A stretch of 64,000 nt of DNA from assembly GCA_964016885.1 (NCBI GenBank), contig OZ024742.1, positions 235,910,001-235,974,000 on the forward strand. The letters are read 5' to 3'. Made by a program: the position numbers and the translations under genes. Under the pieces are notes generated by a model. The model was not told the origin of the DNA. It saw nothing but the letters and a program-made list of their open reading frames with translations, and searched no databases. The stretch is from Eledone cirrhosa (Eukaryota). Of the stretch, positions 34,367-64,000 are shown in pieces (within the stretch, counting starts at the first letter, position 1; each line of letters opens with the position of its first letter).

Positions 34367-34608
34367 GGAGGAGGAGGAGGAGGAGGAGGAGGAGGAGGAG
34401 GAGGAGGAGAAGGAGGAGAAGAAGAAGAAGAAGAAGTATGAGGAGGAGGAGGAGAAGGAGAAGGAGGAGGAGGAAGATGATGATGATGATGAGGAGGTGG
34501 AGGAGGAGGAGGAGGAGGAGAAGGAGAAGGAGGAGGAGGAGGAGGAGGAGGAGGAGAAGAAGAAGAAGAAGAAGAAGAAGAAGAAGAAGAAGAAGAAGAA
34601 GAAAAAAC
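34327..34608. repeat. Polypurine (GAA)n/(GGA)n tract
   Basis: Directly visible; lies at the left border of the 5-kb array. Confidence 0.95.
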
Positions 34609-34773
34609 TTAGAGCAGCCGGTTGCTCCATATACAACCTTCTTGAAAGTGTGTTTGAGAGCAGTCACCACGGCCGCCCTGTCAAGAATTGTTAATATTCA
34701 AGAGCAAGAAGAAGAAAAAGCTTTCGTATATTGAAGAAAACCCCTTTTGAAAGCAAGAAAAAAATTACAGGAT

Positions 34774-34831
34774 GGGCTCGCCCGGGATCTCTCGCACCCA
34801 AAGCGAGAATCATACCCTAGACCAACGAGCC
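34774..34831 (-). pseudogene. tRNA-Pro(UGG) slot A, T-arm deleted
   Basis: 13-nt deletion between two CCCGGGA repeats plus a 1-nt D-loop deletion, relative to 39795-39866. Confidence 0.85.
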
Positions 34832-35211
34832 AATCATTATTACCTGCTTAAATATATCCTAGTAATTATAGTTTGAATGTTACATGTAAAAGAGACTCTG
34901 ACTGACTGTTATGTTGGGAACATTTTTTGTTTGTTTGCTTTTTAATTTTAATTTATTTTATTATGTTTCTACATGTCTAGGATTTTTAGGACACCCGGTC
35001 TATTCTTCAAACTTAATTCCACTTCTCAATCATGTCCAAATATCAATAAATCAATAACATCAACCCAATAATCACAATTGACGACATAACATTATTATTA
35101 CACTTTTTTTATAAAGCATATGACGTGGCCAATTGCAGAAAGTGTCATATATTTGCAAAGTAATATAAACTTACTGCTTTTAGTATATTAATTTGAACGT
35201 ATTTACCAGTT

Positions 35212-35283
35212 GGTTCGTTGGTCTAGGGGTATGATTTTCGCTTAGGGTGCGAGAGGTCCCGGGTTCAAATCCCGGACGAGCCC
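35212..35283 (+). tRNA. trnP-AGG: tRNA-Pro(AGG) slot B
   Basis: Identical to 27918-27989; T5 terminator. Confidence 0.9.
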
Positions 35284-35727
35284 AAGCTTTTTGGAATTTT
35301 TTTTATCATAAAGCTATTCTGTCACACTGTGTTGACTTGGATGTAATGTATATGTTTTTCAGGTATCATCTAATCTTTTTTTTACTTTTTAGAACTATTA
35401 GTATAACAGTCTGTGATGAAAAAAAAAGCTCAATTTAAAACAACTAAATGCAAGCTCTATATAATTTCTGAGTAACAAAGAGTATTTACATTTGTTTACG
35501 TTTCCGTGGTCTGGTTTATATGCAGAAAAATAGTAAAACTCTACAGACGTCGATCAGTATTGGTCACTCAGATTTACTTGTAGTATTTAACATATTGGAT
35601 TTAAAAGAAAACAATAGGGGTTGTGGCAAACGTCGAGATCATCCGGAAAGAAGAACAAGAAAAGGAACTTTTGTGTACTGAACAAAAACTGTTTTATTCT
35701 TTTTGAAAAAAAATAAGAGGTTATAAT

Positions 35728-35799
35728 GAGCTGGTCAAGGATTTGAAGACGTGACCTCTCGCACCCAAAGCGAGAATCATACCCCTGGACCAAAGAGCC
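35728..35799 (-). pseudogene. tRNA-Pro(UGG) slot C, 3' half decayed
   Basis: Anticodon arm intact; T and acceptor stems disrupted. Confidence 0.8.
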
Positions 35800-36133
35800 A
35801 GCCACGTTCTAAATAAATACGTACTAGTAATTATAGCGTTAATACTAGTTGTAACTGAGACTCTGACTGACTGTTAATTTGGAGAGGCATTTTTTGTTTC
35901 TTTTATAACTTTCATTTATTTTATCATGTTTTGAGTTGTCGAGGTTTTTTAGGTCTTTTGGTCACTTCTTAAATCAATAGTCCACTTCTCAATCATATCA
36001 AAATATCAATAAATCAATAACATAGCCTCATCCAGTATATGAAGTGGCCAATTGTTGAAAGTGTAATGGTAGCTGTGCGAATTAACATAATATGGTTGCG
36101 ATTTGTAATATAATGTGTATTTATTAACCAGTT

Positions 36134-36206
36134 GGCTCGTTGGTCTAGGGGTATGACTTTTAGCTCAGGCTGCAAGAGGTCCCGGATTCATATTCTGGAC
36201 GAGCCC
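36134..36206 (+). pseudogene. tRNA-Pro(AGG)-like slot D, 73 nt
   Basis: Acceptor stem perfect; altered anticodon arm and B box. Confidence 0.7.
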
Positions 36207-36636
36207 AATCGTTTAGAAACATTTTTTTTTTTATTATAAACCTATTTTCTGTCGCACTTTGTATACTTAGATGTAATGTATATTTAAATGTATATGCGCA
36301 AAACAATAAAGAAAACTGTCTAATTAGTTGATTATTCTATCATAACCATATTTTTTAACAAACAAGGAAAAGTTACAACTTTATAATTTCATGTTATACA
36401 TTTATTATTATTGAAAAGTTAAAACGATAACCTTAGACCAGCCGGTTCATTTGTAGAAGGTTGCTTTAGATAAAACCTTCTAAAGCGTGTTTGAAGGCAC
36501 AGTCCCCACGGTTCTCTCAAGAATTGTAAACATTTATCATTGATAATCTTGCAGCTTAAGATGCTTCAAGAAGAAGAAGAAAAAGAAGAAGAAGGAGAAG
36601 AAAAAGAATAAAAAAAAACTTTTATTATGGTAAGTT

Positions 36637-60884: not shown

Positions 60885-60956
60885 GAGCTGGTCAAGGATT
60901 TGAAGCCGTGATCTCTCGCACCCAAAGCGAGAATCATACCCCTAGACCAAAGAGCC
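60885..60956 (-). pseudogene. tRNA-Pro(UGG) slot C
   Basis: Array copy. Confidence 0.8.
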
Positions 60957-61290
60957 AGCCACGTTCTAAATAAATACGTACTAGTAATTATAGCGTTAAT
61001 ACTAGTTGTAACTGAGACTCTGACTGACTGTTAATTTGGAGAGGCATTTTTTGTTACTTTTATAACTTTCATTTATTTTATCTTGTTTTGAGTTGTCGAG
61101 GTTTTTTAGGTCTTTTGGTCACTTCTTAAATCAATAGTCCACTTCTCAATCATATCAAAATATCAATAAATCAATAACATAGCCTCATCCAGTATATGAA
61201 GTGGCCAATTGTTGAAAGTGTAATGGTAGCTGTGCGAATTAACATAATATGGTTGCGATTTGTAATATAATGTGTATTTATTTACCAGTT

Positions 61291-61363
61291 GGCTCGTTGG
61301 TCTAGGGGTATGACTTTTAGCTCAGGCTGCAAGAGGTCCCGGATTCATATTCTGGACGAGCCC
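61291..61363 (+). pseudogene. tRNA-Pro-like slot D
   Basis: Array copy. Confidence 0.7.
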
Positions 61364-61767
61364 AATCGTTTAGAAACATTTTTTTAAAAATTATAAACCT
61401 ATTTTCTGTCGCACTTTGTATACTTAGATGGAATGTATATTTAAATGTATATGCGCAAAACAATAAAGAAAACTGTCTAATTAGTTGATTATTCTATCAT
61501 AACCATATTTTTTAACAAACAAGGAAAAGTTACAACTTTATAATTTCATGTTATACATTTATTATTATTGAAAAGTTAAAACCATAACCTTAGACCAGCC
61601 GGTTCATTTGTAGAAGGTTGCTTTAGATAAAACCTTCTAAAGCGTGTTTGAAGGCACAGTCCCCACGGTTCTCTCAAGAATTGTAAACATTTATCATTGA
61701 TAATCTTGCAGCTTAAGATGCTTCAAGAAGAAGAAAAAGAAAAAAAAAACTTTTAAAATGATAAGTT

Positions 61768-61840
61768 GGGCTCGTCCGGGATTTGAACTCGGGACCTCTC
61801 GCACCCAAAGCGAGAATCATACCCCCTAGACCAACGAGCC
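61768..61840 (-). tRNA. trnP-TGG: tRNA-Pro(UGG) slot E with G52>A and one extra G in the D loop
   Basis: ACCCCCTAG (five C) gives 73 nt; may be a homopolymer sequencing error. Confidence 0.6.
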
Positions 61841-62964
61841 ACGTGCAACGCCCTGATTTAATATATACTAATAATTATACTTTTAATGTTAGTTGTACCT
61901 GATTCTCTGACTAACTGTTATGTTGGAAAGACAATTTTTTGTTTCTTTTTTAACCTTAATTTATTGTATTATGTTGCCTGATGTCGAGATTTTCTACGTC
62001 ACCCGGTCCACCCTTTAATCTATAGTCCGCTTCTCAATCATATCAAAATACCAATAAATCAATAACATCTACTCTATAATCAAAATTGGCTCTACAACAT
62101 CACACTTTTATAGAACATATGACGAATAGGCTACGTTGCCGGTCACGGCAAAATAGATAAACATGCTTTATAAGCATAATACACATGTAAACCCTTATTT
62201 TGCCACTAAATAATAAATAGTGTTTTAGAACCCAGGTATTGACTAATATCTTTAACCCAGGAGATGACTTTCTGCTAAAATTTTTAATTTCGCAAATATT
62301 TGACTTACTGCTAACATTCGTAATTTCGAAAATATTCCACTCTGCTAAAATTCTAAAATCATAGAAAAGGGTACCACCACTCTATCTTTTTTTTTTCACA
62401 TTTGGTAACACTCTGTGATGGAAAAAGAAGCCCAATTAAAAAAATAAATGCAAGCACTATATCATTTCTAAGTAACAAAAACTATTTACATCTTTTTACG
62501 TTTTCAAGGCCTGATTTATATGGAAAATAATAATAATAAAACACTATAGACGTCGATCAGCATTGGTCACTCTGCTTTACTTGTAGTATTTTACATACTG
62601 GGTTTTAAAAGAAACCATAGGGGTTGTGGGAAACGTCGAGATCAAATGGAAAGTGAACTCGGGAACTCCGACATTCGAAGATAGAAATGTAATCCCAAGA
62701 CTAATAATCCCTCACTTCTTCGTCTATATAAACTATTGTATTTAAGTTAAAACCACAACCTTAGACTAGCCGGATCATTTGTAGACGGTTGCTTTTTATA
62801 ACACCTTTTGGAAAGCGTGTCTGAGGGCACGGTCTCCACGACCCTCTCAAGAATTGTTAACGTTTATCACTGAAAAGGTTGCAGCTTAAAATCCTTCAAA
62901 CAGAAGTAGAAGAAAAATAAATATTTGTGTACTGAACAAGAACTCAAAAAATAAAAGAGAGGTT

Positions 62965-63030
62965 GGGCTCGTCCGGGATTTGAACCCGGGACCTCTCGCA
63001 CCCAAAGCGAGAATCATAGACCAACGAGCC
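62965..63030 (-). pseudogene. tRNA-Pro(UGG) slot F
   Basis: D-loop deletion. Confidence 0.85.
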
Positions 63031-63269
63031 ACGCACAGCAGTGGTCACTCAGATTTACATGTAGTATTTTACATATTGGCTTTAAAAGGAAACAATAGGG
63101 GGTGTGAGAAAAGGTGAGATCAATCGGAAATTGAACTCGGGAACTCCGACACTCGTAGCTAGAAATATACCCCTAGAAAAATAAATCTACTTCGTCTATG
63201 TAAACTATTGTAGTTGTCTCTAGGCGATAAAAATTCACTTCTCATACATAATTATTACTACTTTCTAAA

Positions 63270-63930
63270 GTCGTATAAACATGTAAATGGAGTTCCACTG
63301 AAGCAGGTGGGGAAATTCAATTATTTCGGGGTCGTGTTCACGTGTGATGGAAGCCAGGAGGCTGACTTAAGTGCAAGAATTACAGGAGGTTGTGCAGTAA
63401 TACGCCAGATTTAGCATATAGCAATGAGAAGAAGGGGAGTAGGCGTAAAACCAAACTTGTTATCTTCAATTCTGTATTCGTGCCAAGCCAAACCTATGGT
63501 CAATAATCTTGAATAATGAACTAAAGAATACGATCACGAATACTAGCAGGCGAAATGGGGTTCCACCGAAGGGTCTTTGGACAAACGTTAATCGATAAAG
63601 TGCGTAACTCGGAGACCAGAGAGTCACTAAAATAGAGCCGCTACTTCTCCGAATTGAGAGATTACAACTCCGATACTACGGGCATGTAGTTAGATTGGCT
63701 CAGTAAAGAATCGCTGGACAGATTTTACGGGCAAAACCAAGCTGCGGGAGACCCAGTGGTACACTACGATCAAGGTGGTTGGATAACATCCATGAGCTTG
63801 GCTAGTCTTGCTTGGTGTTACAGCAGGGTCTATTGGAGACGGTAGCTTCTGACAAGGACCCGCTGGTAGGTGCGTTTAAGGACTCTATCCCCACGACCCT
63901 TTCAGTAATAAGTAGGGGAAGGAGTATATT
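63270..63930 (+). mobile_element. RTE 3' fragment, unit 6
   Basis: Array copy. Confidence 0.8.
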
Positions 63931-64000
63931 AATGTTCAGCAGCTGGGTCGTTAGTTATGGATCTGATCTACTTTGCTTGCGGGGAGTGAGTGGGTCCCAG

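Follow-up and report, generated by a model that had tools for sequence, protein, structure and literature searches.

Structure and Layering of a tRNA-Pro Gene Cluster in the Genome of Eledone cirrhosa

Introduction

The window analysed here is a 64,000-nucleotide stretch of the 3.0-Gb genome of Eledone cirrhosa (assembly GCA_964016885.1, contig OZ024742.1, here contig C3, positions 235,910,001 to 235,974,000 of the forward strand). Its right part is occupied by near-identical 5,030-bp units filled with genes and gene remnants for proline tRNA. The question raised by this locus is whether such an array is a working source of tRNA-Pro or a silent surplus, which is usually hard to test since clustered copies are identical. 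A further 240 kb beyond the window was also read, for a total of 304 kb. With its 5,030-bp repeat, the window takes in only the left end of a tRNA-Pro cluster of ~243 kb, in which about three-quarters of the tRNA-Pro gene copies of the animal lie. To judge from its sequence, this cluster is probably the main tRNA-Pro dosage locus of the animal, turned over by unequal crossover, with decayed tRNA slots carried as passengers. The 5,030-bp repeat alone is a known kind of structure; what is new is the scale, the layering, and the genome-wide pattern.

The 5,030-bp Tandem Array

The array runs from approximately position 34,620 to the end of the window with a period of 5,030 bp and 99.2% identity at an offset of one unit, so the near-identical units described in an earlier note on this DNA are real. 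The units are arranged head-to-tail, are 98–99.9% identical to one another, and are AT-rich (33–39% GC). That note counted at least 5.8 units. The repeat is borne out, but the full count is eight, with six units starting inside the window and the array extending ~11 kb past its end.

ARAGORN identifies 26 tRNA genes in the window, every one of them Pro, and Rfam returns the same 26 and no other families. A profile built from the window's own tRNA genes, with a clear slot defined as at least 15 bits, finds nine clear and two faint slots in each unit, on both strands. The slot order and two-stranded layout described earlier are recovered by this search, and the "about ten" slots become nine clear and two faint, the eleventh being a faint remnant absent from the earlier list.

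A slot was classed as intact if it is 72 nucleotides long, has lost no stem pair of the cloverleaf, and retains 14 invariant bases. Each of the eight long units contains exactly one intact UGG gene and one intact AGG gene, where two or three competent-looking slots had been proposed, and the 5,030-bp layer holds 16 strictly intact Pro genes. Slots A (UGG) and B (AGG), both previously called intact, pass this test with one exception: unit 1 has a broken slot A, and its intact UGG gene is slot E. In units 2–8, slot E falls one lesion short of intact. Slots A and B have the cloverleaf, the A and B boxes, G35 and G36, and a T-run terminator. Minimum-energy folds do not separate intact from decayed slots. 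Targeted decay of slot E was considered and rejected, as three slot E variants among units 2–7 fall in a more divergent tract.

Units 2–7 differ by 1–22 substitutions, a closeness that an assembly artefact would also give, and the read depth is uncalibrated. An artefact is extremely unlikely. The substitutions fall in patterns shared among units (unit 2 with unit 5; units 3, 4, and 6), the cluster has no N gaps over the stretch read, and divergence grows with distance between units. A single sample with two sequencing runs yielded contigs that span 21 of 30 and 23 of 30 bins of a tRNA-free spacer, at a summed, uncalibrated depth of mostly 70–190. They carry the majority-unit letters at four diagnostic sites, although the sample may be the source of the assembly and in that case would not be independent. 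Restriction-site-associated DNA sequencing runs of other individuals place two reads each on the spacer stretch. A search for the unit among RNA data sets listed none that contain it, which has no bearing on expression.

The Whole Cluster

From left to right, the cluster is composed of an older diverged edge, eight units of 5,030 bp, approximately 66 units of ~1,912 bp with local length variants, approximately three units of 12 kb, and a second edge that is likewise diverged. Over the 304 kb, 273 genes are identified by ARAGORN, of which 264 are Pro (140 AGG, 120 UGG, and 4 CGG); the other nine occupy Pro slots and appear anticodon-damaged. This count is approximately twofold above the number of working genes. 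Adjacent tRNA genes (tDNAs) lie less than 1,000 nucleotides apart and serve a single amino acid, as in a homogeneous tDNA cluster. Toward the right of the cluster there are Pro slots whose altered anticodons lead ARAGORN to assign them to Met, Leu, Thr, Ser, or Gln; if expressed, these are possible missense readers.

A 29-letter Pro motif has 203 exact matches in the genome, over four anticodons. This cluster contains 157 of them, contig C6 contains 23, C1233 contains 6, and C10 contains 2, so that four loci hold 188 of the 203. Strictly intact genes number 116 in the cluster, 21 on C6, 4 on C1233, and 2 on C10 (143 classed in the four loci), and 52 of the 55 classed intact AGG genes lie inside the cluster. 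The earlier suggestion of a tRNA-Pro dosage locus is supported by this concentration. An array of tRNA-derived short interspersed elements (SINEs) was rejected; full 72-nucleotide genes end in T-runs, and the motif matches are largely confined to the four loci.

Two other Pro loci were characterized. The second Pro array (C6:83.20–83.24 Mb) has a 2,047-bp unit of UGG/CGG/UGG/AGG genes in head-to-head pairs, and holds seven of the nine intact CGG genes classed. A small group at C3:235.83–235.84 Mb, ~100 kb left of the cluster, has a canonical AGG gene with a C3:G70 pair, head-to-head with a UGG gene. This group is possibly close to the founder pair.

The profile search identifies 447 tRNA-like slots in ~245 kb, with most gaps being 50–600 nucleotides. 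Such density, together with the precedent of human 1q23.3 (PMC4041453), is what would be expected if the main role of the cluster were structural, as a TFIIIC-dense chromatin boundary. The B boxes decay freely in most slots, and a boundary as the main role is scarcely probable; it may instead be a side effect of a dosage locus.

Anatomy and History of the Cluster

The strand alternates in 392 of 446 adjacent slot pairs, and 173 head-to-head pairs with 250–480 bp between them are present over the four loci. The building block is a head-to-head UGG/AGG pair of ~1 kb. In a tree of 36 head-to-head spacers, those of C6 stand apart from those of contig C3, and on contig C3 the A–B type and the C–D type each group across zones.

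The 1,912-bp unit corresponds to approximately the first third of the 5,030-bp unit and is 90–93% alike. It has an intact C-type UGG gene and a decayed A-type gene, the opposite of the 5,030-bp unit. The remainder of the 5,030-bp unit recurs in the 12-kb units 140–165 kb away (92–98% alike), and because of this the short-unit layer likely expanded within an older block. The two levels of amplification proposed earlier are supported, with ~1-kb pairs duplicated and multi-pair blocks then re-amplified.

Among the 55 of 66 short units that are 1,880–1,960 bp long, divergence grows with distance, from 1.4% for neighbours to ~2.7% at 35 or more units apart. This pattern fits unequal crossover, which would be the mechanism here as has been proposed for the Ser-Tyr-Tyr array of Arabidopsis (PMC2886086). 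An intact AGG gene is retained in 40 of the 66 short units and an intact UGG gene in 46 of 66, independently of each other. Coupling of the two genes within a unit is seen in eight of eight long units but was rejected for the short units, of which 8 of 66 lack both, against 7.9 expected by chance.

The sequence shows local duplication of a ~1-kb head-to-head UGG/AGG pair, decay of many of the copies, and re-amplification of blocks of several pairs as units of 5,030, 1,912, and 12,000 bp. The amplification would have proceeded through unequal crossover or local gene conversion. Selection would act on the total count of working genes and not on each copy. Decayed slots and a retroelement piece would be passengers, multiplied because the repeating unit includes them. 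The intact copies, transcribed by RNA polymerase III, would likely supply most of the animal's proline tRNA.

The retroelement piece present in the unit contains stops in all three frames. Its family is dispersed, with 9,871 candidates in the genome, and the best copies outside the array are 82% alike. One dispersed relative reads into an RVT_1 domain (E 2.8e-9), while the window's own retroelement pieces have no reverse-transcriptase match. The fragment noted earlier in each unit is present, and its membership in the RTE clade is putative. A 727-amino-acid open frame elsewhere in the genome (253–2433 of its stretch) resembles GIY-YIG (Penelope-like) retroelements by Atlas features.

Conservation, Flanks, and Decay

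When older homologous stretches are compared, intact slots show changes at 132 of 1,780 sites, where the rate in the adjoining spacer would give 246 (ratio 0.54); the comparisons share history, are not independent, and include decayed partners. Slot B has 0 differences in 72 nucleotides from its copies at both cluster edges, where 11.5 and 15.8 would be expected from the flanks. Contigs C3 and C6 carry an identical UGG gene, with spacers there ~66% alike.

In human and mouse, the combination of a conserved body with divergent inner flanks is a mark of tRNA genes that are active (PMC6130373). In nine near-intact UGG modules, the gene body differs by 3%, the 20 nucleotides upstream by 40%, and the sequence farther upstream by 19% (35 of 36 pairs). 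Relative to background, divergence of these 20 nucleotides is 2.05-fold for UGG and 1.56-fold for AGG genes (17 of 45 pairs for AGG), and the same ratio is 0.58, 0.82, and 0.90 in the decayed slots G, H, and D. The intact genes are conserved over deep time, with hypervariable 5' flanks of the kind typical of transcribed tRNA genes.

Several observations weigh against a working dosage locus. The upstream ratio is also raised in the decayed slot J (1.30) and in decayed C-type copies (1.66). The AGG ratio is 0.62 before pairs with non-homologous upstream DNA are dropped. The flank pairs lack independence, and for several controls the number of pairs is 3–11. In the young short-unit zone, the flanks of decayed slots are as variable as those of intact slots, and the flank signature is a record of past, not present, transcription. 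Variable columns in the 1,912-bp zone make up 15–18% of intact slots and 13% of spacer, and about a third of the formerly intact slots already carry lesions, so per-copy selection is not visible there.

The lack of visible per-copy selection in the young zone and the fast decay of slots are what a largely silent surplus would produce, a few dozen genes elsewhere doing the work. The cleaner C6 array with its 21 intact genes and the canonical UGG/AGG pair ~100 kb upstream could serve as such working genes, and clustered Pro genes are silent in Arabidopsis (PMC7544208). Silence of the cluster is nevertheless judged unlikely. Just three classed intact AGG genes lie outside it, slot B is deeply conserved together with its private U3:G70 pair, and the flank signature is present; the excess of CpG transitions is not significant (14/102 vs 50/544, odds ratio 1.6, p = 0.20).

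The decayed slots could also be retained for functional tRNA-like RNAs or fragments, as the earlier note suggested. In unit 2, a T-run lies within 15 nucleotides downstream of every clear slot, and slots D, E, and F retain much of the promoter. In the older stretches, 420 of 3,026 sites in decayed slots have changed, more than the 308 that the spacer rate would give (ratio 1.37, from non-independent comparisons in which some partners are intact), and different slots decay in different zones. A functional role of this kind is not supported, since decayed slots diverge at least as quickly as the spacer, and we consider it very unlikely. The faithful copying of the graded variants is due only to the young age of the units.

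A Private tRNA-Pro(AGG) Gene

All 52 intact AGG genes of the cluster contain the pairs U3:G70 and U27:G43, and the three classed elsewhere contain C3:G70. Exact matches to the U3 5' end fall inside the cluster in 65 of 65 cases genome-wide. In human-type ProRS, identity lies mainly in the anticodon arm, so the U3:G70 change is likely tolerated; G3:U70, of which U3:G70 is the mirrored pair, marks alanine (PMC9976931). With one private base, U3, in the cluster's AGG gene and another, G66, in the UGG gene of the 5,030-bp layer, ordinary tRNA-seq could assign output to the cluster and to the layer. No published report of a U3:G70 tRNA-Pro was found, which is weak evidence of absence, the usual notation being unsearchable and subscription journals and supplements largely outside the search.

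Arrays of Other Amino Acids

Other tRNA genes (Gly, Lys, Cys, Phe, and Asp/Glu) were counted with short patterns of differing stringency, so the counts are rough. Two arrays contain 44 of 69 Gly-GCC matches and two contain 40 of 51 Lys-CTT matches; two clusters contain 56 of 59 Cys matches and two contain 19 of 30 Phe matches. Asp/Glu has 320 matches, and 71 of the first 100 matches listed fall in one tandem array with a period of 1,337 bp. In sampled 10-kb stretches, ARAGORN calls the resident amino acid in 38 of 38 genes for Gly, 50 of 52 for Lys, 52 of 59 for Thr, 38 of 39 for Cys, and 20 of 20 for Phe, with most strays one base off the resident anticodon. Of the seven amino acids examined besides proline, five (Gly, Lys, Thr, Cys, and Phe) have their own tandem arrays in the same genome and two (Asp and Glu) share one, so proline is not special. 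Dedication to one amino acid, which had been presented as distinctive, recurs among the amino acids examined, and a proline-specific role of the cluster is not supported.

It is also very improbable that the array grew by selection for high proline demand, such as that of a proline-rich secreted protein. The 203 Pro-motif matches (four anticodons) exceed those of Gly-GCC, Lys-CTT, Cys, and Phe, and three bivalves carry 28–42 Pro genes (PMC9679248). Asp and Glu together exceed proline, as far as rough counts allow, and all amino acids tested are arrayed. There are twice as many Cys as Phe matches, a ratio not expected from the usage of these amino acids.

The Asp/Glu array (C3:277.24–277.36 Mb and beyond) is more than 110 kb long, with head-to-head Glu(−)/Asp(+) genes in its unit. 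A sample of 43 genes contains 21 Asp, 21 Glu, and 1 damaged gene, making it the sole mixed array seen. In the Thr(AGT) array (C1:243.65–243.70 Mb) the periods are nested, and calls of Ser(ACT) and Ile(AAT) recur; these calls likely represent Thr genes whose anticodon has shifted and which were multiplied along with the unit. This array was reached through an Rfam tRNA search of the genome, in which 63 of 552,091 candidates were scored and the other matches were mostly lone genes. Cys(GCA) arrays are located at C3:199.36–199.43 Mb and C13:5.53–5.59 Mb, with spacings of ~1,400 bp and 150–180 bp. Single-amino-acid arrays of Gly(GCC), Lys(CTT), and Phe(GAA) are located at C1:141.18–141.28, C4:26.06–26.10, C4:79.56–79.61, C4:128.67–128.73, and C6:85.45–85.47 Mb. 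At many dispersed sites ARAGORN makes lone calls of Ala(GGC) or Thr(GGT), whose anticodons are seldom found in animals; these are likely the head portions of a SINE that derives from a tRNA.

The arrays of other amino acids were likely built by the same process as the proline cluster. A wider proposal, possible rather than probable, is that most tRNA genes lie in amino-acid-specific macrosatellites resembling small ribosomal DNA loci, one or two arrays per amino acid, with sizes drifting by unequal crossover and variants sweeping through arrays; tRNA-Pro(IGG) with its U3:G70 wobble would then be the principal tRNA reading CCU and CCC codons. With a separate array for each amino acid, such a genome would make it possible to ask directly if the number of tRNA genes tracks demand or drift.

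Comparison with Known Systems

Homogeneous and very large tRNA clusters are both known in animals (PMC2888827, PMC7919458). As in homogeneous tDNA clusters, the genes and pseudogenes of the Eledone cluster belong to a single isoacceptor family; clusters of very large size are present in Nematostella and teleosts. Those large clusters are mostly mixed and parallel, and the mostly homogeneous ones named, rarely long, are those of Tetrahymena, Monosiga, and drosophilids (PMC2888827). The Eledone cluster combines large size, homogeneity, and strand alternation.

The closest plant counterparts are the tRNA-Pro "P clusters" of Arabidopsis, which are proline-only and have clustered copies with a private base permitting expression tests (PMC7544208, PMC12308677). 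These comprise 39 clustered genes, silent in tests, against 24 dispersed ones. The Ser-Tyr-Tyr array is a multi-gene unit proposed to have expanded by unequal crossover (PMC2886086). Unlike these, the Eledone cluster contains several hundred slots, three nested periods, head-to-head pairs, and nearly all intact AGG genes.

The human 1q23.3 macrosatellite shares a kilobase unit, ~98% identity, genes on both strands, and a retroelement fragment in the unit. Its 7.3-kb unit is mixed (Leu, Gly, Glu, Asp) and GC-rich, with a piece of a long interspersed nuclear element and a CTCF site (PMC4041453), whereas the Eledone array is AT-rich, serves one amino acid, and consists mostly of decayed slots. 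Entamoeba has most of its tRNA genes in tandem arrays, in units of at most five genes with short tandem repeats between them (PMC2652664); Eledone has long AT-rich spacers and layered decay.

Available portions of PMC9679248 and PMC12257675 give tRNA counts and no arrays, and the word "tRNA" does not occur in PMC13652810 on coleoid genome architecture. No published description of one-amino-acid tRNA arrays in cephalopods was found, a weak negative given that subscription journals were mostly outside the search and supplements were unread.

Features of the Window

The features are listed in Table 1, with slots given for unit 2 unless another unit is named.

Table 1. Coordinates of features within the 64,000-nucleotide window.
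Feature	Position	Strand	Description
Older diverged left edge of cluster	26330..32910		Same slot types, ~73–96% identity to unit, broken up by other repeats
Intact tRNA-Pro(AGG)	27918..27989	+	Identical to slot B although flanks differ 16%
(GAA/GGA)n tract	34326..34603	+	Left boundary of young array
5,030-bp higher-order tRNA-Pro array	34605..64000		Unit starts near 34,640, 39,660, 44,690, 49,720, 54,750, 59,780; two further units outside window
Slot E of unit 1, intact canonical tRNA-Pro(UGG)	36637..36708	-	Slot A of unit 1 broken by deletion
Slot A, intact tRNA-Pro(UGG), U7:G66	39795..39866	-	T-run terminator 9 nt downstream
Slot B, intact tRNA-Pro(AGG), U3:G70 and U27:G43	40247..40318	+	Head-to-head with slot A; T-run 4 nt downstream
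Slot C, decayed UGG copy	40765..40836	-	Acceptor and T stems broken, G53C; homologue is intact UGG gene in 1,912-bp zone
Slot D, decayed AGG-type copy with insertion	41171..41243	+	Head-to-head with slot C
Slot E, UGG copy one lesion from intact	41648..41719	-	C56A in unit 2; different lesions in units 3–8
Slot I, faint remnant	42532..42581	-	4–5 bits, not significant alone
Slot F, UGG copy	42844..42909	-	6-nt deletion in D arm and A box
Slot J, heavily decayed copy	42995..43066	-	
3' fragment of non-long-terminal-repeat retroelement, dead	43158..43803	+	
Eleventh tRNA-like remnant, faint	43827..43894	+	6–10 bits
Slot G, heavily decayed copy	44188..44259	+	
Slot H, heavily decayed copy	44353..44424	-	

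A 335-amino-acid stop-free frame (33180–34184, minus strand) adjoins the left boundary of the array. It matches no Pfam family, its Atlas look-alikes, with scores of 0.95–0.96, are uncharacterised, and it is likely a mobile-element piece. A short interspersed repeat with a B-box-like head, presumably an octopus-type SINE, is inserted in the old edge, at 15800–16300, 26690–26870, 27390–27570, and 29770–29950.

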